Assembly (NCBI GenBank): GCA_963677545.2
Contig: CAXXKH010000003.1
Span: 672,563 to 704,562 of the forward strand
Reading direction: 5' to 3'
DNA: 32,000 nt
DNA from: Desulfobacterales bacterium
GTDB taxonomy: Bacteria > Desulfobacterota > Desulfobacteria > Desulfobacterales > JAFDDL01
Under the pieces are notes generated by a model. That model was not told the origin of the DNA and did no database searches. It was given only the letters and a program-made list of their open reading frames with translations. Position numbers and translations under genes: made by a program. How positions within the stretch are numbered: the first letter of the stretch is position 1; each line of letters starts with the position of its first letter. Below, piece after piece: positions 1,972-26,680 of the stretch.

Positions 1972-2013
1972 TGAATAATGGCCATGTCCAAGGACAAAAG
2001 GCAAAAACGAATT

Positions 2014-2374: not shown

Positions 2375-2398
2375 AAATGGTAGTTTTTCTGCGTAAGT

Positions 2399-4363
2399 TT
2401 AAAAGTTTATTTCCAAAAGCCCATACACCTGATCATTGTCCGAATAAAAACCAATCGGTGTTTCTACCGATCCGTCAAAAAATTCTGCACCGAATTCAAG
2501 TCGAAGGGGCTGCCAATAGGCGATCTTGAACTTGGGATTGATCATAGTAGCATCTCCGGAAAAGTCATAATACCCACGACATTCAATTTCGTAATTACCG
2601 TTTGAAAAGGTTTTTCGAAACGTGCCGATCAGGGCGCTGGTTTGTTCCTCCGCCCAGACGATGAGCGGATCATAATCCCTGACCGAACTTTGGAAAAACT
2701 GAAGGTTGGCATACCATGCATTTGGGCTGTTGTAATCCATGCCGAGCATGTACTGCCACTGAGCTTTTTGCATACGTTCCAACCGGCTGGTTTGAAAGCT
2801 CTGGTTGTCAAAGTAGGCAATGTCGGCTCTGACCCCAAAATCTTTTACCGTTGTTTCAATCTCAAAACCGAAAATGTTTTGCCGGTTATGAACCAGTGAA
2901 ATGTTTTGGCCGGAAATGGAGGCAAACGATGCAAGATCAATCGGGGAAAACTCACCAGGCGGAAGCACAACACCCGGGGGCAGCCACATGCTGTCCGGTG
3001 TCGGTAAGTCCTCACGAGTGTAGAACCAACTGACGGCATAGTCGATATTTCTCAAAATTCCCGCTACCCGGATACCGTATTCGCTGTTGTCCAGGGAACA
3101 GCCGGGATCATCTTCAACTAAACCGAATGGACCAATTGTGCTGTCCGCGTGTCGAAACATGGCCCAGTCGGTGCCCGTGAAATCGAGTTCCGGGCCGAAA
3201 AAACCGGGGATATAAATACTCTGGAAGGTTATTTGGCCTTGGTATATTTCCAGGTTTGCCATGGGGATAGGGAGCTTCCGGTCTTCCCTGCGTCCGGCGA
3301 CACCATCCCGGTAGTCTTCAGGATTCAGATTGTCAAGGGGGCTGTAGCCATCTGTCTTGCCCCAGCGGACCACTTGATTGCCGAGCTTCAGGTTGAATCG
3401 CGGATGCGCGAAATTTATGTAGACATCGTGGAACCTCAGATTAAAGTCGTTATCCACATCCCCGCTGTTGGTATAACCATAATAATCGATATCCAGAGAG
3501 AATACCATTTGAAGATGGTTGTTCGGCTTATAGGTAGATTCCAGGATCAGTTCGGCGTGTCCATACCCATCGTCTTCGAATTCATTTTCAGTATTACTAT
3601 CCATGGATAGTAGGGTACGAAATCGTCCGGAAAGTTCGACTGGTGGCAGAGTGCTAATCGCATCCGGACTGCTGTCAGCACTGTCCCACAGGCCCTTCGC
3701 GCTTTCAGCCCCCGCCACATCCGAAGGCCCCTGATCCCAGAGATCACTGGCCCGGGTGTTATCGTCTTCAGAGGGGGGGGCTTCCCCCCAGAGATTGTCC
3801 GCATCGTCATCCGGGGATACGTCCGTATCCTCCCCCCAGATATCCTCGCTGCCTGCTGTTTCTTCTTCGTTGCTGCCGTGTGAAGTGGGCGTACTATCCG
3901 CTGCAGGTGAATGTTCGGTTGTCTGAAATGATTCTTGAGTCTCATTCTTGGGGTTGCTTATAAAAATGGTAACGACACCCCTGTTCTCTGAGGCATCGAA
4001 ATCAATACCGTTCAATATCTCGGTGTCAAGCACAATGCGCACTTTGCCGGGATGCTGTCCAACACGTACTGCTCTGACGATACCACTGCCGTCTTCCGGC
4101 CGTATGGTATTTTTTGAGAGAGTACACCCCTCCAGATCAATAACAATCCGATCTGGTGACGTCAATGTGAAAGGATTTATTTCCGGGATAATCCCGCTGA
4201 AATGGATTGTTACTGTGTCACCCGAATCATCGCTTTCAAGCTCGATATTTCTCACAACGGATCGTTGCATATCCCCGGTTTCGATATCTTCCCCGGAAGC
4301 TGACGGACAGATTGTAACCGCCATTGTCAACGCTGAAAGAACCCATATAGCCCAATTTTTCAT
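2399..4363 (-). CDS. Outer-membrane protein: signal peptide, AMIN-like domain, acidic Trp-repeat linker, and a DUF1302-like beta-barrel
   Basis: ORF 2399..4384; start moved to ATG 4363, giving signal peptide MKNWAIWVLSALTMAVTICPSASG. AMIN-like segment VRNIELESDDSGDTVTIHFSG...DRIVIDLEG...VRAVRVGQHPGKVRIVLD. C-terminal ~415 aa carry LGNQVVRWGKTDGYSPLDNLNP and end in the aromatic ...YGLLEINF, typical of OM barrels. Confidence 0.7.
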   Translation of the reverse strand: MKNWAIWVLSALTMAVTICPSASGEDIETGDMQRSVVRNIELESDDSGDTVTIHFSGIIPEINPFTLTSPDRIVIDLEGCTLSKNTIRPEDGSGIVRAVRVGQHPGKVRIVLDTEILNGIDFDASENRGVVTIFISNPKNETQESFQTTEHSPAADSTPTSHGSNEEETAGSEDIWGEDTDVSPDDDADNLWGEAPPSEDDNTRASDLWDQGPSDVAGAESAKGLWDSADSSPDAISTLPPVELSGRFRTLLSMDSNTENEFEDDGYGHAELILESTYKPNNHLQMVFSLDIDYYGYTNSGDVDNDFNLRFHDVYINFAHPRFNLKLGNQVVRWGKTDGYSPLDNLNPEDYRDGVAGRREDRKLPIPMANLEIYQGQITFQSIYIPGFFGPELDFTGTDWAMFRHADSTIGPFGLVEDDPGCSLDNSEYGIRVAGILRNIDYAVSWFYTREDLPTPDSMWLPPGVVLPPGEFSPIDLASFASISGQNISLVHNRQNIFGFEIETTVKDFGVRADIAYFDNQSFQTSRLERMQKAQWQYMLGMDYNSPNAWYANLQFFQSSVRDYDPLIVWAEEQTSALIGTFRKTFSNGNYEIECRGYYDFSGDATMINPKFKIAYWQPLRLEFGAEFFDGSVETPIGFYSDNDQVYGLLEINF

Positions 4364-4605
4364 GTTCGCTGTCCTATACCCCAACAGCGGGGTATTTAAT
4401 GAAAAGCCACTATTTCTCGTGCAGAGACGTAAAGATACAGAGCGATATAAAGCTGTGAAGCGAGGATGCCGGGAAGCTATGATGCAAAAACAAGCTTGAA
4501 ACTTTTGAGCCTCTTAAGAAAAGCGGTGTGGAATTGCATTGGGTTGCTATGAAGAAACAGAAACTTTCTGTACCTCAGTCCCCCTTGCATTTGAAAAACA
4601 TCCCG

Positions 4606-4755
4606 TTATCCTATTGCCTAAAGCCTATAATCCATCTCCTCCTTGCTTATGTTCTTTCCGACCTCAGATCTCCGACTTCCGACCTCTGGCACCTTGCCCC
4701 TTGATGTTTCTTCCAGGCTTCATAGCCTCCCAGCCTTCAAGCTCCCCGCTCCACG
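4606..4755. repeat. Pyrimidine-rich (plus strand) modular tract directly 3' of the stop codon of the 4756..5541 gene
   Basis: Contains CCTATTGCCTAAAGCCTATAATCC, then CCGACCTCAGATCTCCGACTTCCGACCTCTGGC, then CTCCCAGCCTTCAAGCTCCCC. The same three modules recur at 23826..24062, 26681..26844, 29350..29458 and 31650..31826. Confidence 0.7.
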
Positions 4756-5541
4756 CTAACTCCCATGCATCATATACGCCTTGGTGAAAATATTGTCAGG
4801 GATATCCCTGTTATAATGTAACTCCAGCGTCTTCATGTATGTATGGTGATCCTTTTTCAGGTCATGCATCTCTGATTCGGTAACAGACCAGATGCCATCC
4901 ACCTGCTTTATTTCTATGGCCGTAAACTCTTTCATCACTTTTCCCCTGCTGTCATAATACTCGGTTTTAACGGGAAGTAACGCTGTTTTAGAAATCCAGG
5001 AAATCAATTTGCCGTACTGAGTAGATTTGGCGTCCTTGGGAATGCTCTCAAGAACCCAGCATTCGTGGGTCCCCACGTTCTCCTCCCGCAGAATGTTATG
5101 CCGGTCCTGGTCGGGTTTGCGGCGCTCCATGTCCTCATAGGTATAATCGGTGTTTACGAACCGGCTGGATTTCTGTGATGAAACGATTCTGCGCACGCGG
5201 TTGAGCGCCGGAAGAAAGAGGAACTGATCGTTTTCGCGTTCTTCATTTTCCCAGGTCAAAAACGAGGTGCCGTCAATATCAGCCGGAGAAGTAAATTGGA
5301 TATAGCTTTTTTTTATTTCCCCGTATTCTTTGGTGGCGCTAATCAGGGTGCGAAACCGCTTTCTGCCCCTTTTGTCCAACAAGAGCATTCGGACCGTGGC
5401 ATAGGAGTCCTTTCCGTCTTCTCGGTTATATACCTTTTGTGCCAGTGTCGATCCATCGATGGGAAATGGCTGAGCCGATGCGTTTATGCAGATAGCAAAT
5501 ATTAAGAAGAATCCCATCAATTTTCTAACAGATAATTTCAT
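4756..5541 (-). CDS. LolA-like outer membrane lipoprotein-sorting family protein (periplasmic)
   Basis: Signal peptide MKLSVRKLMGFFLIFAICINASA. The body (YNREDGKDSYATVRMLLLDKRGRKRFRTL...QFLFLPALNRVRRI...DYTYEDM) matches my recollection of the LolA-like family that accompanies MMPL exporters and DUF1302-type barrels. Confidence 0.65.
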   Translation of the reverse strand: MKLSVRKLMGFFLIFAICINASAQPFPIDGSTLAQKVYNREDGKDSYATVRMLLLDKRGRKRFRTLISATKEYGEIKKSYIQFTSPADIDGTSFLTWENEERENDQFLFLPALNRVRRIVSSQKSSRFVNTDYTYEDMERRKPDQDRHNILREENVGTHECWVLESIPKDAKSTQYGKLISWISKTALLPVKTEYYDSRGKVMKEFTAIEIKQVDGIWSVTESEMHDLKKDHHTYMKTLELHYNRDIPDNIFTKAYMMHGS

Positions 5542-5614
5542 AGGGCCCCTTTTTGTTTAAAAATATTAAAAAAATATACTAAGAAAACGGTGAAAGTTCA
5601 AGTTTGTTTTAGTC

Positions 5615-5644
5615 GTTCTCTGCGTCACTGCGTCTCTGCGCGAG
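5615..5644. repeat. Solo copy of the GCGCAGAG-type repeat arm
   Basis: GTTCTCTGCGTCACTGCGTCTCTGCGCGAG, same orientation and near-identical to the right arm at 2342..2374. Confidence 0.6.
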
Positions 5645-5675
5645 AAATAAATGCTTTTATGCCGTAAAAGGTATG

Positions 5676-7682
5676 TCAGACAAATTCCTGAAGCGCCGGT
5701 AACGCGAGTTGGGCGGTTTCAATGGAAACATCGATCCCTGGTGGGGACATGATTTGATAAATTGTGTGGTAGCTATCAGGTATTGGTCCGACAATTTGCT
5801 CGATCCCCTGCAGGTGAATTCCCTGACGAGCCAGAAAAGAGATATAGGTGTGTCGTAATGCCTCGGGGGTTATTTGTTGCGGATCTCGAATCTGCGCCTG
5901 CTCGGCCGCCTCTAAGATACATTCCTCAGTTGTTTTGAGGGGAAAGGGGGCGCCCTTTTCGTTTCTCAGAATGTATTCGTCACCGTTCGTAGTCACTGAA
6001 AGGTTTTTTAAAAGAATCGAACGATAAAGTGGTGTTAATGGAATCGTTCGAGTGGAAGCCCCAGACGCTTTCAGCTTTCCTGTATCGAAATCGATATTTT
6101 TCCATTTTAACCGGATAATTTCATCGATGCGCAATCCGTTAAACAATCCCGCGATTATAGACTGTGTTGCGTCACTTGAAGCCACGTACAGTTTTTTAAT
6201 TTCCACATCCGACAACTCACGTGACAATATCTGTTCTGCTGGTGGAAGAAGGTTCTGACTTGCAGGCGTGCCTTGTAATTCGCTATGGGTTTGTGATGGC
6301 AGGCTTTGAAACACTTGATTGTAAGTGACGGGGAAAGCACCCAGGTCTTCTTTTCCGGCAGGGGCTCTTGTCAGAAAATCGAAGATTAGAACAGCGGCAA
6401 TTGCCAGCAACAGTGACACAACGACACTGATGGCAGCGTCACGCACATAATTTGGACGCGAAGGAGACTCCGGGAGGAAAGCCCTTTCGAGAACTTTGAT
6501 CTGAAGCAAGTCCGCGTCGCTTTTAATTTCCATTGCAACCATTTCTTTCTGATATTCTCTGCTCAACTTTTCGAGTTCCAGCAGGTTTTCTTTCAGCGAT
6601 TCGTATTCGGAAAAACGACCGCTGAATTCGGCGGCTTTTTTTTCATATGAAGCTATCTGAGCACGCAAATCATTTTCTGCGTGGCGCGCGCTTATGATTG
6701 CCTGTTCAGCCTCTTCAAGGGCAACTGTTTTAAGTTCCGTATGTTTGGATTGGATTTCTTCTATAAGACGGTGATATCTGTCTATGGTTGTCCGCGTGTT
6801 TTTGTCGATTTCTAAAAACTGAGGGGTGTACCGCGCTTCGTAATCCCTGACCAATTCCTCCATTTCGTCTGCTTTTTCCTCCAGACGCAGGAGTTCGGTG
6901 GTTTTTTTATAATTGCCTGCCCATTTTCCCTGTTCGATCGCTTCTTTGACTGAACGGAGATTCGCTTCCGCCAGTGTTCTATTTTCCGTTGCTTTATTCA
7001 GCGAATTATTCAACCCCTTCAGGGTAGAGAGAACTTTATTGCCATCTCGCTCCAGAGTGACAATGTCATATTTTTGGCGAAGCTGTTCCAGTTCCTCTCG
7101 TTTCTTTTCAATTTTATTGTTCAAGGTCTCGATTTGTTGATGAAGAGATACCGTGGTTGAATTCGAATAGGCTTGTTGTGTTTTTGAGTTCATGCCTACA
7201 TAGCGATCGATCCACGAATTGACGATGACCGGTAAGATCGCTTTATTCGGGCCGGCTGCTGTCAGGCGAATGACTGCACTATCTGAACGGGTTGTAACAT
7301 GAAGCATCGGACGGAGGGCGGAAACGGTGAACGGTTCCAAATACCCGGTATAGTCTGTTGAGGATAAACCGGTCAGCACATCCGACAGCAGGCTTCTGCT
7401 TAACAGCACTTGTTCCTGAAGCGCAATGTCATATGTGCTGGCATCCTGCCCTTCGCTGTTCGGATTTTTAGGTTCGATGAGCAAATCGGCGCTTGACTCG
7501 TAAATAGGCGGCCTGGCAAAAGTAAAAGCAAGTGACAGGGCGGCGACGACAATAAATACCCCTGCAAATATAAGCAGTCTTTTCCAAGACCTGTGTATTC
7601 TGGATCGAGGGGGTAGTTTACGGTATGTGCCGTTGAGAGGAGAAGGTTCGTAAATATGAGTTTGAGATGATTGCTGGGCCAT
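5676..7682 (-). CDS. Polysaccharide co-polymerase (Wzz/EpsF-like chain-length determinant) fused to a C-terminal tyrosine-recombinase-like domain
   Basis: TM1 LLIFAGVFIVVAALSLAF. Wzz motif FARPPIYESSADLLIEP. Long coiled coil. LPESPSRPN followed by TM2 AAISVVVSLLLAIAAVLIFDFL. The C-terminal ~185 aa (5676..6230) carry GLRIDEIIRLKWKNIDF, TRTIPL, and ITPEALRHTYISFLARQGIHLQGIEQIVGP...HTIYQ, resembling integrase boxes I and II. Confidence 0.7.
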   Translation of the reverse strand: MAQQSSQTHIYEPSPLNGTYRKLPPRSRIHRSWKRLLIFAGVFIVVAALSLAFTFARPPIYESSADLLIEPKNPNSEGQDASTYDIALQEQVLLSRSLLSDVLTGLSSTDYTGYLEPFTVSALRPMLHVTTRSDSAVIRLTAAGPNKAILPVIVNSWIDRYVGMNSKTQQAYSNSTTVSLHQQIETLNNKIEKKREELEQLRQKYDIVTLERDGNKVLSTLKGLNNSLNKATENRTLAEANLRSVKEAIEQGKWAGNYKKTTELLRLEEKADEMEELVRDYEARYTPQFLEIDKNTRTTIDRYHRLIEEIQSKHTELKTVALEEAEQAIISARHAENDLRAQIASYEKKAAEFSGRFSEYESLKENLLELEKLSREYQKEMVAMEIKSDADLLQIKVLERAFLPESPSRPNYVRDAAISVVVSLLLAIAAVLIFDFLTRAPAGKEDLGAFPVTYNQVFQSLPSQTHSELQGTPASQNLLPPAEQILSRELSDVEIKKLYVASSDATQSIIAGLFNGLRIDEIIRLKWKNIDFDTGKLKASGASTRTIPLTPLYRSILLKNLSVTTNGDEYILRNEKGAPFPLKTTEECILEAAEQAQIRDPQQITPEALRHTYISFLARQGIHLQGIEQIVGPIPDSYHTIYQIMSPPGIDVSIETAQLALPALQEFV

Positions 7683-8102
7683 GATAATCCTGAATTATTT
7701 TATGACATTAATGAGGTTTCAACGAACAATCAACCGTTTATTAGGAGCTGCTAAGAGTGACAAGCCCTGAACACGGAGAATACAATAATTTCCCACTCGT
7801 TACAATTTTTTCCTTTGTTTTTTTATTAAAGGTTGCCGTGAAAATTCATTTTCAATAAATAAGCCTATAAAATAATAAGTTATAGCCGATGATCGTGCTC
7901 GCATTTTTTGGCATGATTGCTGCTTATGTTTTGGGAATAAATAAATGTTTCTTTTTCCGGAGATTCCTGATAGTGACTCTTAAAAGTTATTATCCAACAT
8001 TTTGTGCTTTTAATCTGTATCCATCACAAGGATTTGCGATAAACAAATGTTGTATCTTCACAATGACTCCACAATCCCTTCATATCGAAAACGGTTGTTT
8101 AT

Positions 8103-8714
8103 ATGCTGAAATTTGATTTGGTAAGGCCCGAAGAAGCTCGATTCATAGAGGTTACGCAGCAATGTGAAAAGTCCTATTGGCGCTGTGACCTCCTGGATGA
8201 AAAATCCAGCTTTAATGAAAATCCGGACTATTATTGTATTGTCCGACGAAGCAACAACATACTCGTAACCCTGGGTGTTTTTTTAAAAACTGCCACAAAA
8301 TCTTTACCAATCGATGGGGTCATGTGGTACCAGAACAGCGGCCATGAACATACTGAGATAGAGCTTGGGCGCTTATCTTTTCACCAAAAGCCAAGCACCA
8401 AAAAGGAAGTCCTTGAAATTGTTGCTATCACCAGATTTTTGTTAGAGAATTTTTATTACCATGCGGAAGAAAAATATGGATCCTATATGGTTTATTTCGA
8501 AACTTACCATACTATCATAAAGCTGCTGTCCGCTGCAATTGGTAAAGACTTTATGATACCGAGAAAATGCCTGCTTCGATGGGATCAAATTCCTGAAGAG
8601 AGACGCGTTTTTTACAGAAAATTTTCCGAAGGTACTGCCGGTTTGTATCAAGTGGATCTGGATGCTTTTCGAAAGGCGATGGGAATAGTCGATAAAATAT
8701 CTGTCTATGCATAA
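8103..8714 (+). CDS. Hypothetical protein; weak resemblance to LuxI / N-acyl amino acid synthase-type GNAT fold
   Basis: 203-aa ORF convergent with 8732..9925. Segment TEIELGRLSFHQKP...ITRFLLENFYYHAEEKYGSYMVYFETYHTIIKLL resembles the core acyltransferase strand-helix motif. No stronger evidence. Confidence 0.4.
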   Translation: MLKFDLVRPEEARFIEVTQQCEKSYWRCDLLDEKSSFNENPDYYCIVRRSNNILVTLGVFLKTATKSLPIDGVMWYQNSGHEHTEIELGRLSFHQKPSTKKEVLEIVAITRFLLENFYYHAEEKYGSYMVYFETYHTIIKLLSAAIGKDFMIPRKCLLRWDQIPEERRVFYRKFSEGTAGLYQVDLDAFRKAMGIVDKISVYA

Positions 8715-8731
8715 CTGGAAATTATGAACGG

Positions 8732-9925
8732 CTATGATGAATATTGAGTCAGCAATTTTGGATTTAGCACCCTGACATTCTCGTCCTCTAAGGCGACAAT
8801 TTCGTTTTTCCGCCATTCCGTAATTATTTCCCGCAGGTTTTCCGGCCAAAGACCGCATTGTCTTGCCAGCCACGTCACGTGTATGGGTTTTGTCCCCTCA
8901 TCCGAGGCGTCGAGAAGTACATTGGCCACGGCTGAGGGCGATGGTGCAGTAATATTTTTATATCCCTGAATCTGACGTCTCAGTCGAGTGCCGAGCAGTC
9001 TGCAGATTTGCAGCGCCTTATCTCTGCTGTGCTCCAGCTGCTTCATAAACATCTCCTTGCTCCAGACCATTACATCCACTTCGTTGGAGTAGGGGACGAT
9101 TGTGGTTGTCCGTGCACCGCCATCGAGCAGGGATAGTTCACCGAAGATGTTGCCTTTGGAAATCAGAAAGTCCTTTTCCCCAATACGGTTGAACTGATTC
9201 CGTTCGGGAATAATGTCGTTGCCGTTTTTATCGGTCGGCAAGACCCTGATGGAACCCCTGAGGATAAAAAACGCGTCATCTCCCGCTTCCCCCTTCTGGG
9301 CAATAATTTCTCCCTCTTGATATATTTTCCGGACATTAGAGTCCTGAAGAATGATTTCGGAGGAAAAATCAAAAATTTCCCGGGAGCGCGGAGGAATTTT
9401 ATCCCAGCTTAGAAAAGCCGGTGTCATGGGAACTTGCAGTCCCGGTGATTCAAAATCGTTTCCGAGCCGTTTTGCGTTGAATGCGCGCTGGAGCAAGCGC
9501 ATGAGCGGAGGGTGCAGGGTTGCGACAACATGCCTGGCCCCCATTTTGCGCATGCTATGGACTGCCATTTTGAAGAGCCCGATAAGCAGCCCTGGATAAC
9601 TCCTGAATTCTTTTAATACGCAGAGCCACCCGAAACAGGCACACCTGCCTTCCAGATCTTTGATAAAAGGTCTGAAATCAAAATGTTCGTCTGCCGGGAA
9701 ACCGGCTGGGCTGTCCATGACCACACGGATTGTTCCGATTGGTTCTGCATCCTTGAAGGCAATGATATTCAGCGTTTCGTCAAAGCTGTCGAACATATCG
9801 AGAATGTAGGGGGTCTGGTGGGGAAATCGCCGCTCCTGCTCGACGAACACTCTGTGACGCAGTTTAAAAACGGTTTCCTTGTCCTCCGAGGATTCAGCAA
9901 CTTTGAACACGATCGGCATGAGCAA
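8732..9925 (-). CDS. Fusion protein: GNAT-type N-acyltransferase (PEP-CTERM-associated N-acyl amino acid synthase-like) + cyclic-nucleotide-binding domain + CRP-like wHTH
   Basis: SD AGGAGGG precedes the ATG. N-terminus FKVAESSEDKETVFKLRHRVFVEQERRF...IGTIRVV...CFGWLCVLKEFRSYPGLLIGLFK. Middle IYQEGEIIAQKGEAGDDAFFILRGSIRV...IFGELSLLDGGARTTTIV (cNMP phosphate-binding cassette). C-terminus VTWLARQCGLWPENLREIITEWRKNEIV (HTH-like). Confidence 0.7.
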   Translation of the reverse strand: MLMPIVFKVAESSEDKETVFKLRHRVFVEQERRFPHQTPYILDMFDSFDETLNIIAFKDAEPIGTIRVVMDSPAGFPADEHFDFRPFIKDLEGRCACFGWLCVLKEFRSYPGLLIGLFKMAVHSMRKMGARHVVATLHPPLMRLLQRAFNAKRLGNDFESPGLQVPMTPAFLSWDKIPPRSREIFDFSSEIILQDSNVRKIYQEGEIIAQKGEAGDDAFFILRGSIRVLPTDKNGNDIIPERNQFNRIGEKDFLISKGNIFGELSLLDGGARTTTIVPYSNEVDVMVWSKEMFMKQLEHSRDKALQICRLLGTRLRRQIQGYKNITAPSPSAVANVLLDASDEGTKPIHVTWLARQCGLWPENLREIITEWRKNEIVALEDENVRVLNPKLLTQYSS

Positions 9926-10009
9926 CCCTCCTGGAATTTTTGATTTGTACTTTTGGATTAATATAAGTATCAGATGTTTTCAATAATTTTTTTCTATGTT
10001 TTCTTATCT

Positions 10010-10218
10010 CCCGTTTCGTTCAAGATCGTGAGAGACCGCCGGGAACTACCTGAAAAGCAGAAAAATAATCTCGCGCAGAGCCGCAGAGCCGCCGAGAACT
10101 GCAAAAGAAGCTATTGCATTTCGCTGATCGCGAAATACAATAAAGGCATTCCCACTGGAAAGGAGCGCCTGCCGCAGGCATCGAGGTTTTTCTTTGCCGA
10201 GGCGTCCCTGTCTTGTAA
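10010..10218 (+). repeat. Modular hairpin repeat, copy with L-type arm variants, H1 hairpin and truncated H4
   Basis: TTCGTTCAAGATCGTGAGAGACCGCCGGGAAC, then TCGCGCAGAGCCGCAGAGCCGCCGAGAAC, then ATTGCATTTCGCTGATCGCGAAATACAAT, then GCATTCCC..GGAAAGG, then GCCGCAGGCATCGAGGTTTTTCTTTGCCGAG. Confidence 0.7.
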
Positions 10219-10304
10219 TCCATGTGCAAATAGGAATAGCCAACTATCGATGGAGTGATGATAACCAGCTTTACATTAAATTTAATACCTGATAGTTTTG
10301 TGTT

Positions 10305-10616
10305 ATGGAAAAAGCTGCTAAGGAGACTTTTAAAAAGGTTGTTACGGAACAATTTCCAGTCAATCAGAAGCGAGGGGGAGGCATAGTTAAAATCGAGGCT
10401 TGGGAAAATGAAAAGGGTGAAATCGTTAAATACAGTATGGCATACATCAATCCTTTCATTTTTCCGGAGGATAATGGCCGTGTGGTTGGGTATGACAACA
10501 CACATAATTTTCATCATCGCCACTTTTTCGGAGAACTATCTGAAATAAAAGATTTTTCAAGCTATCAGGAATTGTTAAATCGTTTCGAAAAAGAGCTTAA
10601 GGAGTTCATTGAATGA
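10305..10616 (+). CDS. DUF6516/TumE-like putative toxin
   Basis: 103 aa with GYDNTHNFHHRHFFGE motif (compare RYDDTPHFPKLNSFPNHKH at 31357..31587). 4-nt ATGA overlap with the downstream wHTH gene. Confidence 0.5.
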   Translation: MEKAAKETFKKVVTEQFPVNQKRGGGIVKIEAWENEKGEIVKYSMAYINPFIFPEDNGRVVGYDNTHNFHHRHFFGELSEIKDFSSYQELLNRFEKELKEFIE

Positions 10617-10987
10617 GTGTAGAATTAAGACCTGGATTGTTATCCGATTTTTTTGCATCTGCGAAGGCAACCGCAAAAGAGATCGACGAGGGCAAAAAAG
10701 TAACGAAAAAAAATATTATTTGGGTCGAGCCATCCGATCTTATGGCCATATTAAAGCCGGAAAGGACGCGATTAGTTCGGTATTTAAAGAAAAAGCAACG
10801 GGTGGTTTTTTCAGAACTGATGTCTGAAATGCAGCGTACACCGGTCAGTTTAAATAACGACTTGAAAATATTATCCCAATACCAATTGGTTAGAATATTC
10901 AAGGAATCCAATGCCGGACATGGAATGCATAAGGTCATCGAGGCAACCTACGGTAACGAAAATATTGAGTTTAAGGCTGTGATTTGA
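10613..10987 (+). CDS. wHTH DNA-binding protein (TumA / HVO_A0114-like putative antitoxin-regulator)
   Basis: Translationally coupled to 10305..10616. Layout IIWVEPSDLMAILKPERTRLVRYLKKKQRVVFSELMSEMQRTPVSLNNDLKILSQYQLV fits a MarR-like winged helix. Confidence 0.5.
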   Translation: MSVELRPGLLSDFFASAKATAKEIDEGKKVTKKNIIWVEPSDLMAILKPERTRLVRYLKKKQRVVFSELMSEMQRTPVSLNNDLKILSQYQLVRIFKESNAGHGMHKVIEATYGNENIEFKAVI

Positions 10988-11002
10988 AAACTGAAAAGGG
11001 TA

Positions 11003-11157
11003 TTACATCTCGTTGACTACGAATTACATTAGTGCGTTTCTTATAGATAGGGAGAACCTTGCAGCAGGCATAGATGGTTTTGCTTGCCGAGTGTTCCAGG
11101 CAAAAATATCTTTTCTTGGCGCCTCTTTGCGTTCTTGAACGAAGTGGGCGGTGAGAA
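11003..11157 (+). repeat. Modular hairpin repeat, degenerate H1/H2 plus H3, H4 and R arm
   Basis: ...GCAGCAGGCATAGATGGTTTTGCTTGCCGAGTGTTCCAGGCAAAAATATCTTTTCTTGGCGCCTCTTTGCGTTCTTGAACGAAGTGGGCGGTGAGAA. Confidence 0.65.
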
Positions 11158-11202
11158 GGGCTTAGAAAAACATTATTTTTCAAAAAAGACTGACGTTTTT
11201 TA

Positions 11203-11460
11203 ATGGTAACAAAGCGAAAAATACTTCAGAAATTGCTTTCAGGGTCAAAAAATATCCGATTTTCTGATATGATAACCCTTGTTGAAGCTTTTGGTTTTCA
11301 GCTTTCTCGTACCAATGGAAGTCATAATGTTTTCGTTCATCCTGACATCCCGGAACTTATCAATCTTCAAGAGGTGAAAGGGAAAGTCAAACCATATCAG
11401 GTTCGTCAATTCCTGAAACTAATAGAGCGAAACAACTTGAGCTTGGAGGAGTATAAATGA
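11203..11460 (+). CDS. hicA: HicA-family toxin
   Basis: FGFQLSRTNGSHNVFVHPD...LQEVKGKVKPYQVRQFLKLIE matches the HicA GSH core. ATGA overlap with the hicB-like gene. Confidence 0.75.
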   Translation: MVTKRKILQKLLSGSKNIRFSDMITLVEAFGFQLSRTNGSHNVFVHPDIPELINLQEVKGKVKPYQVRQFLKLIERNNLSLEEYK

Positions 11461-11681
11461 GAGATTACCACATAAATATTTTCTATTCCGAAGAGGATGG
11501 TGGATACATTGCCGACATTCCGGATTTGAATGCTTGCTCTGCCTACGGTAATACCCCCGAAGAGGCGCTTTGCGAAGTTCAAAAAGCGAAAACGATTTGG
11601 CTGCAAACCGCTCGTGATAGTAAAAGACCGATCCCCCTTCCGAAATACAGACCTGTTATCTATCAAGCATCATGTGCTTAG
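11457..11681 (+). CDS. hicB: HicB-family antitoxin (short form)
   Basis: YHINIFYSEEDGGYIADIPDLNACSAYGNTPEEALCEVQKAKTIWL is the typical HicB N-terminal fold. Coupled to hicA. Confidence 0.75.
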   Translation: MRDYHINIFYSEEDGGYIADIPDLNACSAYGNTPEEALCEVQKAKTIWLQTARDSKRPIPLPKYRPVIYQASCA

Positions 11682-11758
11682 TGATATGACGATTTTTCGA
11701 TCGAGATCTCAAAGGGCTTTTTATGTCTGTCGTGTGAACTACCTTTTTTTATAAGAAT

Positions 11759-11817
11759 TGTTTACCGGCCACTCCGCCTCGACATCGGGACTACGCTAAA
11801 GGGTGCCAAGGGCCGCT
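11759..11817 (+). repeat. L-arm fragment of the modular repeat
   Basis: TGTTTACCGGCCACTCCGCCTCGACATCGGGACTACGCTAAAGGGTGCCAAGGGCCGC, compared with 12518..12575 TTTTTTACCGCCCACTACGCCCTGTCGGACTTCGTTCAAGGCCGCCAAGGACCGCC. Confidence 0.55.
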
Positions 11818-11984
11818 TAGATTGACAAAGGCTGGTTGCATAGGAAATATTTGCCTGATAGAAAGATAAAAGATAAATTGCATTCGAAACTACCGCGGAT
11901 TTGGGAATAGTAACTTTGAATTAATTGAGTATGGACATTCAGATTATTATTCTGTTCCATAACTATTGAAAGGTAAGTGAGAGC

Positions 11985-12305
11985 ATGATGTCAACTCAGG
12001 ACAAGAAAATCCTTGAACTTTTTACGGCACGAGTTCGAGACCTGTACAAGGACGCACGGGTTTGGGCCTATGGATCACGCGTACGGGGGGATGCAACCTG
12101 GGAGTCCGATTTTGATATTTTTATACTCTTGCCGAAAAAGGATGAATTTGCAGAGACAAAGATCAGGAATATCGGTTGGGAGATTGGCTTTGAACATGAA
12201 AGAGTTCTTACCACCGTGATAATGGAGCAAAATCAATTTGAGCATGGTCCCATGTCTGAGAGCACTCTTGTTAAAAATATCCTGCATGAAGGCCTGGAAG
12301 CGTGA
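11985..12305 (+). CDS. MNT-type nucleotidyltransferase antitoxin
   Basis: AYGSRVRGDATWESDFDIFILL (GS...D.D polymerase-beta-type NTase motif). 4-nt overlap with the HEPN gene. Confidence 0.75.
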   Translation: MMSTQDKKILELFTARVRDLYKDARVWAYGSRVRGDATWESDFDIFILLPKKDEFAETKIRNIGWEIGFEHERVLTTVIMEQNQFEHGPMSESTLVKNILHEGLEA

Positions 12306-12484
12306 CCTCTGAAAACATAAAAGCGTTGGTCCGGTATCGGCTTGAACAATCCGACGAGTCTATTAAAGCTGCGGTTTTGTTACTCCAAGAGGGCATCCCG
12401 AGACGCTCGGTCAACAACTCCTACTATGCTATGTTTTATGCCGTCATGGCGCTTCTTTGCGATCTTAAGCGAAGCGAGCGGTGA
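12302..12484 (+). pseudogene. HEPN-domain toxin gene truncated after ~51 codons by a repeat R arm
   Basis: The native part ...LLLQEGIPRRSVNNSYYAMFYAVMALL is a typical HEPN first half. The last codons CDLKRSER* are encoded by the repeat GGCGCTTCTTTGCGATCTTAAGCGAAGCGAGCGGTGA. The C-terminal half, where HEPN proteins carry the Rx4-6H motif, is absent. Confidence 0.65.
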
Positions 12485-12487
12485 GAT
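12448..12487 (+). repeat. R arm of the modular repeat (forms the 3' end of the truncated HEPN ORF)
   Basis: GGCGCTTCTTTGCGATCTTAAGCGAAGCGAGCGGTGAGA, compared with 15724..15762 GGCGCTTCTTTGCGATCTTGAGTGAAACGGGCGGTGAAA. Confidence 0.7.
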
Positions 12488-12517
12488 AGCAGTTATTTTT
12501 TGGCTTTTATGATATTG

Positions 12518-12665
12518 TTTTTTACCGCCCACTACGCCCTGTCGGACTTCGTTCAAGGCCGCCAAGGACCGCCAAGGCCGCCAAAGGCGGCTAAAAGCTG
12601 CAAGGTGCTATTGTATTTCGCTGGTCACGAAATACAATGAGAGCATTCCCTTCGGGAAGAGGGAG
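12518..12665 (+). repeat. Modular repeat, L arm through H2, right half missing
   Basis: TTTTTTACCGCCCAC...CTTCGTTCAAGGCCGCCAAGGACCGCCAAGGCCGCCAAAGGCGGCTAAAAGCTGCAAGG..ATTGTATTTCGCTGGTCACGAAATACAAT..GCATTCCCTTCGGGAAGAGGG. Confidence 0.7.
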
Positions 12666-12798
12666 CAGATATGTTTTTCTCAGCGGTTTGCTTGAATTGA
12701 TGGGCTTCGCACTGTATGTGGAAAATATTCTGTTGACAAAATGCCCTGTAGATTTACATTTGAAATGTACGAAAATATAACGAATTTATATTATTATA

Positions 12799-12956
12799 GT
12801 GAACGTTACAGAACTCAGGAAACATATATCTGCATATATGAATAAGGTAAAAGCAGGTGAAGAGGTGGAGATAACGTCTCGGGGCAAGGTTATTGCGAGG
12901 CTGGTTCCGGAGGTGGATGAAAGCCGCGCTGCACGCATGCGTCTGGCTTCTATTAG
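12799..12956 (+). pseudogene. Truncated orphan copy of the Phd/YefM-type antitoxin gene at 14387..14626
   Basis: 12713..12956 aligns with 14303..14553 (promoter, operator and the first ~53 codons: NVTELRKHISAYMNKVKAGEEVEITSRGKVIARLVPEVDESRAARMRLASI). The SD and ATG are lost and homology stops at 12956. No cognate PIN gene follows. Confidence 0.6.
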
Positions 12957-13000
12957 TCTCTATGGTGAGCACTCAAAAAGAAGTTGCTATTTATTAAAAA

Positions 13001-13390
13001 TCAAATTTTCCAACCACGTTGAACAACAATTTCGGGCAAGGGGTAATGTTTGGTGTTTAATGTATAAATCTTACCTCCGGTTTGTATGACGGTGGCAGCC
13101 AGAATCGCATCGTTCACGTCCATGCCATGGCTCGGATTCCAGCGACGATAAAGCTCTCCTGCCTTATCGATAATAGTCTGGTCGACCTGTTCGGTTTTAA
13201 ATTGCGATAAAAACAGCAAAGTGGCTTTTTCTTCAACCGGGCGCATAAAAAACACCACTTCGGCGCGCTGCATGGTACCGATCCAGAGTTCCATCTTTTC
13301 TCTGTCGCGCAGTTTTTTAAGTAAGTTGAGAGCGTTCCGTTCACCGCGCAAATGCCATATGAGAATATCCGAATCGATAAACGCTTTCAT
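13001..13390 (-). CDS. vapC: PIN-domain toxin (VapC-like)
   Basis: MKAFIDSDILIWHL...MDVNDAILAATVIQTGGKIYTLNTKHY shows the PIN acidic residues. 4-nt overlap with the upstream antitoxin gene. Confidence 0.75.
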   Translation of the reverse strand: MKAFIDSDILIWHLRGERNALNLLKKLRDREKMELWIGTMQRAEVVFFMRPVEEKATLLFLSQFKTEQVDQTIIDKAGELYRRWNPSHGMDVNDAILAATVIQTGGKIYTLNTKHYPLPEIVVQRGWKI

Positions 13391-13644
13391 CGCTTATATC
13401 TTTCCTGGGATATGCGCATTGTTGTCTTGATTCGTGTAATCGTATCGTCCGCGGATTCGTCACGTTGCCAGCTGCCAAACGTTTGGACCAAGAGATCCAG
13501 ATCTTTCTCCGAAGCGATTTTTTCCGCATAGGCCTGGACAGCGTTTTCGAGGACAGCTTTTTTTGATGTCCCCAGTTTTTGAGCCAGCATACCGATTTTC
13601 CGAATCACCGCTTCATCCATACGAGTTGACATTATTTTATCCAT
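13387..13644 (-). CDS. Antitoxin partner of the PIN toxin (RHH/VapB-like)
   Basis: Start moved from 13803 to ATG 13644, preceded by AGGAGG. The longer ORF N-terminus is repeat-encoded. MDKIMSTRMDEAVIRKIGMLAQKLGTSKKAVLENAVQAYAEK. Confidence 0.65.
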   Translation of the reverse strand: MDKIMSTRMDEAVIRKIGMLAQKLGTSKKAVLENAVQAYAEKIASEKDLDLLVQTFGSWQRDESADDTITRIKTTMRISQERYKR

Positions 13645-13672
13645 TTCGAACACCTCCTGTGTATATGTAAGA

Positions 13673-13701
13673 AAGATAACGTAAGATTGTTTAATTGTCA
13701 A
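13673..13701 (-). promoter_or_regulatory. Candidate sigma-70 promoter for the antitoxin-PIN operon
   Basis: On the minus strand: TTGACA (13701..13696), 17 nt, TATCTT (13678..13673), about 30 nt upstream of ATG 13644. Confidence 0.35.
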
Positions 13702-13728
13702 CGGATCATGGTTGAATTGAATGTTACA

Positions 13729-13808
13729 GCGCTTTTGGGATCCTCTCTGCGATCTTGAGCGAAGCCCTGTGCCCCTTGTGCCGGGGAGGCAGGCAGTGAG
13801 CATGCAGT
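13729..13808 (+). repeat. R arm of the modular repeat, long variant with extra GC hairpin
   Basis: TTTTGGGATCCTCTCTGCGATCTTGAGCGAAGCCCTGTGCCCCTTGTGCCGGGGAGGCAGGCAGTGAGCATGCAG, compared with 14137..14206. Confidence 0.6.
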
Positions 13809-13964
13809 AGCATTTAAGCCGTTGATGTTGATTTTATTTATGCGGTAAGATCGATGCCCTGACAAGGCGTTGACTATAGTCATTGACCATAGTACCAAAT
13901 GAATAACGCTTATTTGCGATTTGAAGGCATAAATATAGTTGTTTTAAGCCTTTGTGATAAGAAC

Positions 13965-14206
13965 TTTTTACCGCCCACTTCGTTCAAGACCGCCAAGAAC
14001 CGCCAAGAACAACAAGTGCACATTGTATTTCGCTGATCGCGAAAAACAATGGGTGCATTCCCTCCAGGAAGGTAGTGCATGCCGCAGGCATCAAATTTTT
14101 TCTTGGCCGAGATGTCTCCGGCAAACAAAAAGATCTTTTCTTGGCCTTCCTTCCCGACCTTGAGCGAAGCCCCGACGCCGGGGCAGGTAAGGCGGTGAGA
14201 ATGCAG
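13965..14206 (+). repeat. Complete ~240-bp copy of the modular repeat (L arm, H1-H4 hairpins, R arm); reference copy
   Basis: The L arm TTTTACCGCCCACTTCGTTCAAGACCGCCAAGAA is the inverted complement of the consensus R arm end (..TTCTTGGCGCTTCTTTGCGATCTTGAACGAAGTGGGCGGTGAAAA in other copies). Internal hairpins: ATTGTATTTCGC-TGATC-GCGAAAAACAAT, TTCCC-TCCA-GGAA, ATGCC-GCA-GGCAT and TTGGCCGAG-ATGTCT-CCGGCAAA. Confidence 0.75.
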
Positions 14207-14324
14207 TTTTTTGCTCGACCAAGCGGGTCAGGAAATTTATGGCTGTGAGGTTTGAAAGCGTTTTTGGGGGTATCCCGATTTGTCTGAAATGAGGGGCTTT
14301 ATAATGTAAATGGAGAAAATACTA

Positions 14325-14365
14325 TTGACAAAATGCCCTACAGATGTACATTTGAAATGTACATC
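14325..14365 (+). promoter_or_regulatory. Promoter plus perfect 23-bp palindromic operator of the phd-PIN operon
   Basis: TTGACA 14325..14330, 16 nt, TACATT 14347..14352. The palindrome GATGTACATTT-G-AAATGTACATC at 14343..14365 overlaps the -10. Confidence 0.55.
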
Positions 14366-14386
14366 TATAAAATCAAGGTGATTTAT

Positions 14387-14626
14387 ATGATTATAGTAAA
14401 TGTTACAGAGCTTAGAAAACATATACCTGCATATATGAACAAGGTGAAGGCCGGTGAAGAGGTGGCGATAACGTCTAGGGGCAAAGTTGTCGCAAGGTTG
14501 GTTCCGGAGGTAGATGAAAGCCGCGCTGCACGAATGCGCCTGGCTTCAATCAGAAAAGAGAGCTGGGTGGGGGATGTGATCACACCGACCGGTGAGCCGT
14601 GGGAGGCTGACCATGATTCTCCTTGA
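14387..14626 (+). CDS. Phd/YefM-type antitoxin
   Basis: Start moved to ATG 14387, preceded by AAGGTGA. MIIVNVTELRKHIPAYMNKVKAGEEVAITSRGKVVARLVPE is a typical Phd/YefM N-terminus. Overlaps the PIN gene start. Confidence 0.75.
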   Translation: MIIVNVTELRKHIPAYMNKVKAGEEVAITSRGKVVARLVPEVDESRAARMRLASIRKESWVGDVITPTGEPWEADHDSP

Positions 14627-15008
14627 CACCTGTGTCATGATATTCGATGCGCTTACGCCGGAAAAACTCAGTCAGAAGGCCTTCAAGGAACTGGAAAAAG
14701 GCAGACAATCAAATAACCTTGTCTGCAGCGATATTACACTATGGGAAATCGCTATGCTTGTCAGTAAAGAAAGACTGAAGCTTCCTATACCACTTCATGA
14801 TTTTCTGACCGATGTCATATTGGCCAACAGACTGCGGGTGCTTCCCATTGGCCCTGAAATTGCCGCTTTTTCAGCCTGCCACAGCGAATTTATTCATGGC
14901 GATCCAGCTGACAGAATTATCGCGGCAACCGCGTTGCACCACAATGCGGTTCTTCTAACCTGTGATACCAGACTGAGAAAAATAAAAAGCTTGAAAACGA
15001 TGTGGTGA
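14613..15008 (+). CDS. vapC: PIN-domain toxin (VapC-like)
   Basis: MILLDTCVMIFDAL...HGDPADRIIAATALHHNAVLLTCDTRL. ATG 14613 preferred over the upstream alternative start at 14592. Confidence 0.8.
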   Translation: MILLDTCVMIFDALTPEKLSQKAFKELEKGRQSNNLVCSDITLWEIAMLVSKERLKLPIPLHDFLTDVILANRLRVLPIGPEIAAFSACHSEFIHGDPADRIIAATALHHNAVLLTCDTRLRKIKSLKTMW

Positions 15009-15029
15009 TTGAATCGATCTTTTTTTTCA

Positions 15030-15190
15030 GCTCACTTCTCCCTATGGGATAAACTGAGATGCGGTATTGGTGAGAGCTGCAAAAAGCCCTGCCGGAGGCA
15101 TCGAAGTTTTTATTTGCCGAGTTGTCTTCGGCAAACAAAAAATCTTTCCTTCGCGTTTCTTTGCGATCTTGAACGAAGTGGGCGGTGAAA
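15030..15190 (+). repeat. Modular repeat copy lacking H1 (H3, H4 and R arm present)
   Basis: GCTGCAAAAAGCCCTGCCGGAGGCATCGAAGTTTTTATTTGCCGAGTTGTCTTCGGCAAACAAAAAATCTTTCCTTCGCGTTTCTTTGCGATCTTGAACGAAGTGGGCGGTGAAA. Confidence 0.7.
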
Positions 15191-15332
15191 TATTCAGTAT
15201 TTTTTTTGCTTTTCAGTGAAGTCCCTATCATGCATAGATACCTAAATAATTCTGCAAGGTTGTGGTATTTTTTATTTAATGATAAACTGATTTCTTAAGT
15301 CAGAATCCATTAAGGATATTGGCGAGATCGCG

Positions 15333-15653
15333 ATGAATTCGATAACTGAAAACCAGATCGGCAATATGGTGGTTGATGCTGCAATCCAAGTTCATAGAAC
15401 ACTTGGACCGGGACTGCTTGAAAGTGCATATGAAGTATGCCTTACTCATGAATTACGATCACGAGGTGTTACAATTCAAACTCAGGCCGAGTTGCCAATA
15501 ACTTATAAAAATGTCCGGTTGGATGCCGGTTACCGCTTGAATATTCTGATTGAAAATAAGGTTATTATTGAACTGAAGGCGGCTAAAAACTGCAAAAATC
15601 ATATTGCATTTCGCTGGTCACGAAATACAATAAGGTGCATTCCCTTCGGGTAG
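15333..15653 (+). pseudogene. GxxExxY-family (PD-(D/E)XK-like) gene truncated after ...IIELKA by a repeat copy
   Basis: GPGLLESAYEVCLTHELRSRGV...LPITYKNVRLDAGYRLNILIENKVIIELKA is the canonical first ~83 aa. From 15577 the ORF reads through repeat sequence (AKNCKNHIAFRWSRNTIRCIPFG*). The family C-terminus (..YL..G..LGLL.NF..) is absent. Confidence 0.65.
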
Positions 15654-15768
15654 GGAGCTTGCTGCAGGCATCAAGGTTTTTCTTTGCCGAGTCGTCCCCG
15701 GCAAACAAAAAATAGCTTTTCTTGGCGCTTCTTTGCGATCTTGAGTGAAACGGGCGGTGAAAATGCAG
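15577..15768 (+). repeat. Modular repeat copy, 5'-truncated inside the L-side GCCGCC-AAA-GGCGGC hairpin; H1-H4 and R arm intact
   Basis: AAGGCGGCTAAAAACTGCAAAAATCATATTGCATTTCGCTGGTCACGAAATACAAT...GCTGCAGGCATCAAGGTTTTTCTTTGCCGAGTCGTCCCCGGCAAACAAAAAATAGCTTTTCTTGGCGCTTCTTTGCGATCTTGAGTGAAACGGGCGGTGAAAATGCAG. Confidence 0.75.
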
Positions 15769-15804
15769 TTGAATGTTCTTCAATACCCTGAGCGGTGAGA
15801 CAAT

Positions 15805-23185: not shown

Positions 23186-23285
23186 TTTCACCGCAAGGAG
23201 CGCCAAAAGCTGCCGTAAAAAGCAAAAAATTATCTTGCGCAGAGCCGCTCAGAACTGCAGGCACATTACATTTCGTTATCCGTGG
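23186..23285 (+). repeat. Fragmentary modular repeat (arm variants plus a degenerate H1 left half)
   Basis: TTTCACCGCAAGGAGCGCCAAAAGCTGC...CTTGCGCAGAGCCGCTCAGAACTGCAGGCACATTACATTTCG. Overlaps the 3' end of ORF 23276..23476. Confidence 0.5.
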
Positions 23286-26351: not shown

Positions 26352-26523
26352 TGTGTTTCCTCCAAGTGATGATGAAGCAGCAGGGAGCTTGGGGCGTGGA
26401 ACTTGGAGTTTAAAAAATATTTCCACTACACCATTTTTGTCTATGATTTTAGTATTTCCCATATCTGACTCCGGTCTACGTTATTGGTTTTTGACTCACT
26501 TGTAAAAGCATGAATCTCACGGG

Positions 26524-26615
26524 AAGCTGCAAAGAACGTAACGGTAACACTCTTTTTTGGTTTTTTTTGCGTTCTTTGCAGTGCAGTTTACCCCGGTGTC
26601 GGGGCGTGAGAAATT
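26524..26615 (+). repeat. Fragment related to the long R-arm variant of the modular repeat, with a 12-bp inverted repeat
   Basis: CTGCAAAGAACG...31 nt...CGTTCTTTGCAG, then TTTACCCCGGTGTCGGGGCGTGAGAAATTGC (compare 14170..14205 CCCCGACGCCGGGGCAGGTAAGGCGGTGAGAATGC). Confidence 0.5.
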
Positions 26616-26680
26616 GCTGTTGTTTTTTAAAGTCGTCAGTTTTTTGACCAAACTCCGTTCCAAACGGATGGTACAGTGGA

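Follow-up and report, generated by a model that had tools for sequence, protein, structure and literature searches.

What are the hairpin-rich repeats that crowd the toxin-antitoxin (TA) genes of a Desulfobacterales genome, how far does their family reach, and what could have moved them? The stretch in question, hereafter the window, comprises 32,000 nucleotides of assembly GCA_963677545.2 (contig CAXXKH010000003.1, positions 672,563 to 704,562), in which a preliminary description had proposed at least 14 copies of a repeat family resembling miniature inverted-repeat transposable elements (MITEs) and bracketing almost every TA module. The repeats are genuine copies of a non-coding, non-autonomous, hairpin-forming family. 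It is widespread and probably belongs with the interspersed hairpin repeats that include repetitive extragenic palindromic (REP) sequences, bacterial interspersed mosaic elements (BIMEs) and REP doublets forming hairpins (REPINs). We did not find the family catalogued in Rfam or in the literature searched; it is REP/BIME-like with several unusual features.

Copies in the window and across genomes

The copy at 13960-14215 served as the reference in a profile search (nhmmer) of the window. Extended homologues lie at 10081-10213, 11000-11153, 12519-12667, 15087-15179 and 15575-15771, and arm-only matches at 10001-10050, 11762-11821, 12443-12497 and 13735-13809; all primary matches are on the + strand, in agreement with the single orientation first described for 10-15.8 kb. 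The 19-nt arm core, ACCGCCCGCTTCGCTCAAG, occurs 6 times in the window at <=3 mismatches where 0.01 occurrences are expected, and a module-by-module scan returns 37 matches compared with 2.06 per shuffled window. The arms of the reference copy are mutually reverse complementary (inverted repeats I1 and I2; 85% across 47-52 nt), which bears out the reverse-complement arms of ~40 bp previously reported for it. The order of parts is L arm, hairpins A, B, C and D, and R arm, the last being the reverse complement of L, and the L arm itself consists of TTTTTACCGCCCACTTCGTTCAAG followed by CCGCCAAGAAC-type units. Only one copy, 13965-14207, is complete; the four internal hairpins anticipated between its arms are present, and it folds with z -4.8 as DNA and z -5.5 as RNA. 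The remaining copies lack one arm or some of the hairpins, and both the module scan and the copy-by-copy anatomy support their description as mosaics with differing module subsets. Twice, as had been pointed out, an R arm is followed by an L arm (12487/12518, ~35 nt apart; 13808/13965, 156 nt).

The original count stands only in part. Nine copies or fragments of the modular ~240-bp element are present at 10.0-15.8 kb (Table 1), whereas four further sites are short-arm relatives only, and the site at 26524-26615, matched neither by the profile search nor by the module scan, is doubtful and at best a distant relative. The GCGCAGAG-only sites at 2014, 2342 and 5615 are tied to the family because a GCGCAGAG module sits inside copy 1 (10053-10110; repeat pairs with the short-arm sites are D12 at 76%, and I4 and I5 at 82-91%), and because an element of Desulfosarcina widdelii has a long arm on one side and a short arm of TCTCGCAGAG type on the other.

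Copies were also found far outside this locus, and on this point the refuting test proposed in the preliminary description speaks for it. Taking one genome per species, a scan for the arm core located it in more than 118 genome stretches among the matches listed, mostly from Desulfobacterota of several orders, with further hosts among the Phycisphaerales and Pirellulales (Planctomycetota), the Victivallales, another Verrucomicrobiota metagenome-assembled genome (MAG) and a Spirochaetaceae MAG; D. widdelii PP31 (NZ_AP021875.1) is a cultured host. The 19-mer is identical in 119 of 148 profile-detected arms, a proportion that partly reflects ascertainment, and the window subtype of the core also occurs in 9 metagenome contigs. 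With an identical 19-mer in at least four phyla, a lineage-specific MITE is not supported. A few matches in Lachnospiraceae and similar genomes, in which the adjoining unit repeats are absent, were set aside as chance coding matches, and carriage of the family by phages was rejected, one contig classed as viral in 2.9 million carrying the arm core, twice (IMGVR_UViG_3300028837_001956; L128, L129). The window and 18 related loci gave no Rfam match at the gathering threshold (only a chance snoRNA match, E 0.9), and neither the arm sequence itself nor any description of the arms turned up in the literature searched, including that on REPINs and REP-associated tyrosine transposases (RAYTs) in Deltaproteobacteria, on attC sites in Desulfobacterales, or on GxxExxY and four-helix-bundle repeats.

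Arms, hairpins and folding

Across genomes the arm consensus is tt[c/a]-ACCGC-CCGCTTCGCTCAAG-(ACGCAAAGG)2-3, in which CCGCTTCGCTCAAG is an optional, invariant 14-nt insert and the arm units are tandem 9-nt repeats of CGCNARG type, with variants including CGCAAAG, CGCAGAG and CGCCAAG. A relaxed arm detector recovers 310 arms compared with 60 in shuffled loci. In 47 of 57 complete elements one long arm, that is, one with the insert, is paired in inverted orientation with one short arm, so that the 14-nt insert bulges out of the stem, five base pairs up from its foot; the reference copy is unusual in having two long arms. Two geometries prevail: L-interior-R, with 15-300 nt between the arms in 58 of 70 L-R pairs, and R-spacer-L (tail-to-tail), mostly as standalone units, with an A/T-rich spacer of 10-17 nt (~13 nt) in 25 of 51 R-L pairs. 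Solo arms are also frequent, and element length ranges from 86 to 342 nt. Read on the minus strand, the window element has a module order that matches, by alignment, elements of at least 8 other species.

The hairpin beside the long arm always runs T-run, stem, loop, stem, A-run, with stem sequences wholly different between copies. Among D hairpins that share the loop TGAGAGG, both sides have changed in 8 of the 9 pairs of the stem at 97.8% pairing, in an alignment trimmed by eye around the hairpin, which leans it towards structure; none of 500 shuffles is as good, and slid controls reach <=56%. Minimal copies (L121, L122, L126) have as interior a short A/T-rich stretch, reduced in L122 to T6A5 and a few further bases. 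In several species a conserved ~80-nt module, TTAATTAATCCCTTAAACCTTCAGC...GCTATGCGGGTAAGTGGGAG, without an Rfam match, lies ~80 nt upstream of the long arm (L069, L088, L107, L117, L082 and L047).

The R-sense strand of the insert (the + strand in the window) contains a GCGAAGC mini-hairpin in the context ...CTTGAGCGAAGCGGGCGGT..., and d(GCGNAGC) is well known as a DNA mini-hairpin of extraordinary stability. Variants at this position number 25 among 147 genuine arms, and 23 of the 25 keep the stem pairs plus the loop G and A in the R-sense reading. Thirteen have ACGAAGT, with the outer pair changed on both sides (9 of the 13 come from a biased metagenome scan), one has GTGAAAC, with the inner pair changed on both sides, seven differ in the middle loop base only, and two have GCGAAGT, which gives a G-T wobble on the R-sense strand and an A-C mismatch on the other. 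One further variant has the first loop base changed and one is a decayed copy without both pairs. Of the 47 asymmetric elements, 31 fold better on the R-sense strand (p 0.002). Mini-hairpin variants and strand-biased folding together point modestly to an element that works in folded single-stranded form, with a defined polarity.

Classification and mobility

A REP unit is an imperfect palindrome of about 20-60 bp; REPs occur as singlets, hairpin-forming inverted doublets and clusters, with two unit variants in alternating orientation, and singlets can come from insertion into, or decay of, doublets (PMC3116915). The elements described here resemble the REPs and BIMEs of enterobacteria and the REPINs of Pseudomonas, which RAYT transposases mobilise, in being short non-coding extragenic repeats at gene ends that appear as singlets, hairpin doublets and clusters, with a preference for inverted hairpin doublets (58/70 L-R; 25/51 R-L). 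They further resemble REPs and BIMEs in having two unit variants that alternate in orientation, head-to-head and tail-to-tail linkers that differ, mosaic composition and no linked transposase. The solo and tail-to-tail arms and the asymmetric arm pairs fit this kind of repeat better than the MITE label given at the outset. We file the family as an unusual relative of REP and BIME sequences and do not assign it to the RAYT-REPIN family.

Several observations weigh against this assignment. Unlike a REP, a single arm is non-palindromic: it is built from tandem 9-nt units, contains only the 7-nt mini-hairpin within it, and needs a second arm to form the long stem. The two arms of one element pair no better mutually than with the arms of other elements, so the long stem appears to consist of interchangeable units rather than a co-evolving helix. 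REPINs are lineage-specific and vertically inherited (PMC3116915; bioRxiv 10.1101/2022.05.22.493013), whereas the invariant 19-mer is common to at least four phyla. Arm-bounded elements (n=46) show no consistent target-site duplication; no mobilising enzyme linked to the arms was found in ~870 kb of related loci, and the only RAYT-like gene there is flanked by REPs of its own. To these we add the trimming by eye of the hairpin-D alignment, and a census that counts matched stretches with one genome taken per species. The family also differs from REPs and REPINs in having no GTAG-type motif, no RAYT link found, and an interior of <=300 nt with several hairpins.

What moves the elements may be encoded elsewhere. 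The 32-kb window contains no intact transposase, RAYT or integrase, and the earlier description of the family as non-autonomous is supported; no protein family recurs beside arms in the related loci, and there is no tyrosine recombinase among 586 open reading frames (ORFs) of 118 loci. The RAYT-like gene mentioned above (L114, 4700-5430, a Verrucomicrobiota MAG) lies between GTAG-type REPs, GGTAGGGCCGGACTGCCAGTCCGGCC, on both sides, a REP-RAYT system with no relation to the family arms at that locus. We infer that the elements would multiply as non-autonomous DNA in A/T-rich spacers at gene ends, and our best guess is that an enzyme encoded elsewhere may recognise the invariant 19-mer on a folded single strand. 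In favour of mobility are the element ends, sharp where flanks are unrelated, and the one subfamily with outer inverted ends and CTWAG flanks, both described below; the diverse neighbours, and the tendency of genes on either side to point into the element, agree with the placement at gene ends.

It is unlikely that the elements are ordinary MITEs bounded by terminal inverted repeats, that is, deletion derivatives of an insertion sequence (IS) with a DDE transposase, moved by cut-and-paste with a target-site duplication. Their arms are inverted repeats at the element ends, and these ends are sharp: in unrelated flanks, elements of the window arm subtype cease to be conserved 2-4 nt beyond ACCGC at most, and arm-bounded elements have a T-rich left flank and an A-rich right flank. 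Six seemingly orthologous loci likewise have unrelated flanks, and what is common to them is a sharply bounded 310-390 bp element. This subfamily (subfamily 1; seen at L065, L076, L091, L099, L116, L068 and L082) has outer imperfect inverted ends, TGCTCTAATTCG...ATATATGTA, which enclose arms and hairpins, and its CTWAG pentamer flanks, forming a direct repeat in 4 of 6 cases (inverted in 1, mismatched in 1), are possibly a target-site duplication of IS5/Harbinger-like kind. In subfamily 1, however, the arms lie inside the outer ends and do not form them. Direct flank repeats of >=4 nt are somewhat enriched (15/46 vs 7.5 +/- 2.3), but several apparent ones are the shared spacers of tandem elements, and no duplication is consistent at arm ends. 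Moreover, the two arms are systematically unequal, arms also occur singly or as free-standing tail-to-tail pairs separated by ~13 nt, and no IS with arm-matching ends was found in the 870 kb of related loci. The comparison with the MITEs Correia (Neisseria) and Nezha (cyanobacteria) runs the same way: a length of 100-350 bp, terminal inverted repeats, a strong fold, many copies, sharp ends in unrelated flanks and one subfamily with target-site-duplication-like flanks are shared, whereas unequal arms that also stand tail-to-tail or solo, no consistent duplication and no parent IS found set the present family apart.

Quite unlikely, too, are host-useful RNA structures of 3' untranslated regions (transcript stabilisers, RNase III sites or operon insulators) maintained by selection. 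Such structures would account for the location at gene ends, where genes on either flank are more often than not oriented into the element (121 vs 79), for strong folding that is better on one strand, for the conserved loop of hairpin D over covarying stems, and for the placement of all 10.0-15.8 kb window copies on the strand of most TA genes. They would not account for window copies that are truncated, mosaic and cut genes, for a polarity relative to neighbours that is near symmetric (58 vs 41) and mixed for TA operons (4 vs 3), or for arms that are interchangeable between elements; nor is there an Rfam match. The hairpins are not terminator-like and terminator and promoter motifs are not enriched, so that a terminator or promoter role is unsupported by motif counts.

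We give very little credence to attC-like or pdif-like folded recombination sites, by which a TA module plus element would be a tyrosine-recombinase cassette and the island a degenerate integron-like array. Both the window and the D. widdelii locus do have same-orientation long arms punctuating TA modules, L and R alternate across the first eight arms, the opposite strand carries, 2.3 kb upstream, a decayed fragment of an Xer-type recombinase, and imperfect hairpins with a variable centre and an asymmetric bulge recall the extrahelical bases of attC sites and of clusters of attC sites lacking integron-integrases. The AAC triplet, however, is the sole sequence that every attC site conserves (PMC5027507), whereas left ends here are AAC in 14/46, CAC in 23/46 and TAC in 9/46, right ends are GTT in 21/46 and GTG in 21/46, and window copies have TAC...GTG. 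The integrase is likewise missing, the search of 586 ORFs given above including none; the elements are larger (86-342 nt), mostly single and dispersed beside housekeeping genes, long L...R intervals elsewhere contain ordinary genes, and TA operons have no fixed polarity to the element (reading toward it, with the long arm distal in 4 and proximal in 3, a small sample). Integron attC identity was rejected on terminal boxes, integrase, dispersion and polarity, the arms failing attC criteria, a match to which had been named at the outset as a ground for refutation. Modules of the pdif/Xer kind are each flanked by a 28-bp XerC/XerD binding site with a 6-bp central region; on inspection the arm core is without dyad symmetry.

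Interspersed hairpin repeats are best understood in Proteobacteria, as lineage-specific REPs with a cognate RAYT. The REP/BIME-like family described here departs from that picture in three ways, namely a near-invariant 19-nt signature in at least four phyla, asymmetric unit-repeat arms and covarying internal hairpin stems, and its hosts are mostly anaerobic sediment bacteria. Taken together, signature, arm design and covarying stems imply a conserved recognition partner and horizontal spread. Because such repeats create spurious small ORFs, break assemblies and truncate genes, recognising them improves the annotation of Desulfobacterota and Planctomycetota, and a cultured host with a complete genome, D. 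widdelii PP31, makes experiments approachable.

The island, its genes and other unit-repeat-armed hairpins

Table 1. Repeat copies, fragments and relatives in the window (window coordinates)
Feature	Position	Strand	Composition and context
Copy 1	10001..10218	+	Decayed long L arm 10001-10049, GCGCAGAG unit module 10053-10110; without R arm
Copy 1, hairpins	A 10113-10141, B 10146-10163, C 10167-10182, partial D	+	Left edge of island
Copy 2	11003..11164	+	Decayed hairpin A, hairpin C 11057-11072, D-like hairpin, long R arm 11108-11157; without L arm
L-arm variant with extra inserted hairpin	11759..11817	+	Upstream of MNT gene; weak nhmmer match, E 0.043
Long R arm fused to truncated HEPN gene	12438..12493	+	HEPN ORF 12302-12484, Pfam HEPN positions 2-49 of 117
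Partial copy	12518..12665	+	L arm with extra inserted hairpin, arm units, hairpins A and B; rest absent
R-arm variant	13728..13808	+	Inserted G+C-rich hairpin replaces part of core; tail match 13795-13808
Complete copy	13965..14207	+	Long L arm, hairpins A-D, long R arm with inserted hairpin; no cargo
Partial copy	15087..15191	+	Hairpins C and D, long R arm; downstream of Phd/VapC module
Copy fused to truncated GxxExxY gene	15577..15769	+	Remnant L-arm units, hairpins A-D, long R arm; right edge of island
Truncated copy	23186..23285	+	Short L arm (ACCGC + units), GCGCAGAG module, start of hairpin A; 73% (D14)
Inverted pair of short GCGCAGAG-type arms	2007-2046 + 2342-2381		90% complementary
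Solo short GCGCAGAG-type arm	5608..5645	-	Directly downstream of chain-length-determinant/recombinase fusion ORF
Doubtful relative	26524..26615		Local hairpin CTGCAAAGAACG...CGTTCTTTGCAG plus tail resembling R-arm variant

The genes among the window copies are TumE-like/HVO_A0114, HicAB, MNT with a truncated HEPN, a Phd fragment, a minus-strand PIN module, Phd/VapC and the truncated GxxExxY gene; outside the island, the truncated copy at 23186-23285 adjoins a Phd/PIN module at 22455-23056. No TA module in 10.3-15.0 kb is without a neighbouring copy or fragment on one side or both, and to this extent the bracketing of TA modules proposed earlier holds, but it looks like co-accumulation, since arm pairs elsewhere enclose no TA genes. 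At the D. widdelii locus (L095), too, four long arms in one orientation punctuate an island of TA genes. Neighbours elsewhere are diverse housekeeping genes with an excess of PIN toxins: of the 63 credible small neighbours of arms, 9-12 are PIN toxins, a handful are components of other TA systems and the remainder are housekeeping genes. TA-like genes are no nearer to arms than other ORFs, and elsewhere long L...R intervals show no enrichment and contain ordinary genes, rpsB among them. Gene capture between arms as a family trait was rejected on these two grounds, unenriched intervals and TA distance at background. We read the TA association as co-accumulation in permissive spacers.

The island starts with an L arm and finishes with an R arm, between a FeeM-like and a ThiF-like gene. 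In a relative with a 68%-identical ThiF-like gene (L131) the corresponding spacer measures 378 nt, compared with 5.9 kb in the window, and is occupied by a nested hairpin built from different unit repeats. In a 99.7%-identical genome (L130; 7.44-Mb contig ERZ21873832:ctg9789c), found via its 99% ThiF homologue, the island is the same except that one 8-nt arm unit of copy 1, at 10074-10081, is missing. Within the island HEPN is truncated at model position 49 of 117, within the R arm, and the GxxExxY gene (15333-15576, +) is cut to model positions 3-82 of 116 and joined to L-arm units, possibly at an AAGGC microhomology. Phd is truncated at 12956, at the junction with the minus-strand PIN module and not at an element; this gene and its upstream palindromic operator-like region, TTGACAAAATGCCC...GTACATTTGAAATGTAC, are partly duplicated (12684-12956 vs 14276-14553, 79-87%). 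The truncated HEPN, GxxExxY and Phd genes, the 8-nt unit difference and the absence of the island from L131 support the earlier suggestion that the copies have been reshaping the island, likely by recombination, deletion and slippage among them. Copies and small TA and GxxExxY modules would have accumulated in one FeeM-like/ThiF-like spacer, and recombination, deletion and unit slippage among the copies may then have given the mosaics and truncated genes.

Two further features of the window lie near family arms. The short-arm pair at 2007..2381 encloses a C-terminal GxxExxY fragment (TIGR04256; 2194-2298, minus strand, positions 89-116) nearly complementary in extent to the one at 15333-15576 (plus strand, positions 3-82). 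The two fragments lie 13 kb apart on opposite strands, each abutting a family arm. Inverting 2293..15576 once would bring the two into line, perhaps as parts of one former gene. A 668-aa ORF at 5676-7682 (minus strand), also present in L130 and with the short GCGCAGAG arm at 5608-5645 directly downstream, combines an N-terminus resembling the chain-length determinant of XrtA systems (residues 30-447) with the catalytic half only of an Xer-type tyrosine recombinase (residues 482-632; NF040815 positions 89-241 of 263). The latter scores 23 bits for integrase_gron against a cutoff of 265, and the ORF looks like a decayed recombinase fused in frame.

Window and L130 diverge on a large scale at one place only, where the entire stretch separating two tandem paralogous TPR-repeat genes has been replaced (window 26364-26845 vs L130 20560-21025); in the window, this spacer holds the doubtful relative at 26524-26615. 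The TPR genes themselves (24063-26462 and 26845-29142) share ~70-74% DNA identity over several stretches at a spacing of 2785 and sit in a PEP-CTERM/exosortase-type polysaccharide locus, which places the repeat island inside an exopolysaccharide (EPS) gene cluster. Nine single-nucleotide polymorphisms cluster at 26310-26356, the left boundary of the replaced spacer, and point to homologous replacement (a recombination tract). In L130 the spacer carries a four-helix-bundle gene (PF05635, 23S rRNA intervening sequence (IVS) protein) between inverted arms of AGCTGATAG units, whereas its window counterpart consists of ORF-less nested hairpins. Homologues of this gene at six other sites (L132-L138, gene at ~1501-1860) are all wedged between co-directional operon genes, in EPS, type II secretion system and glycosyltransferase clusters, with AGCTGATA/AGCTCATA units upstream and complementary units downstream. 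Most of the 120 listed four-helix-bundle homologues lie on contigs <2 kb, as would follow if assemblies break at the flanking repeats.

Like the IVSs of 23S rRNA genes that carry a PF05635 ORF, these structures have a long stem formed by inverted flanks that encloses either nothing or a small gene. The arms at PF05635 sites consist of tandem 8-nt AGCTGATAG units, whereas the window family has other unit sequences, is mostly ORF-less and was not seen in rRNA genes here. The PF05635 genes at these sites and the GxxExxY fragment inside the short-arm pair of the window suggest that unit-repeat-armed hairpins could be a general cassette class, with the window family as its ORF-less form. On a broader and more doubtful extension of this idea, hairpins of tandem 8-9-nt units would house small selfish genes (four-helix-bundle/IVS, GxxExxY, possibly TA) and wedge into operon spacers and, as IVSs, into rRNA, where the host would put up with them because the long stem allows the insert to be excised or insulated as RNA; the window family would then comprise the ORF-less, MITE-like members and the 19-mer would be the handle for a mobilising enzyme. 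Other hairpins with unit-repeat arms have GCGCATAGA, CTGACTTCT and CTCTTTACT units (L131 9780-9975; window 26640-26845 and 31668-31799), and CACGGAT-type arms stand ahead of a GxxExxY gene in D. widdelii (L095). A 47-nt direct repeat, CCAATAGCCCATCGCCTATAGCC..., occurs in the window at 31668 and 31753.

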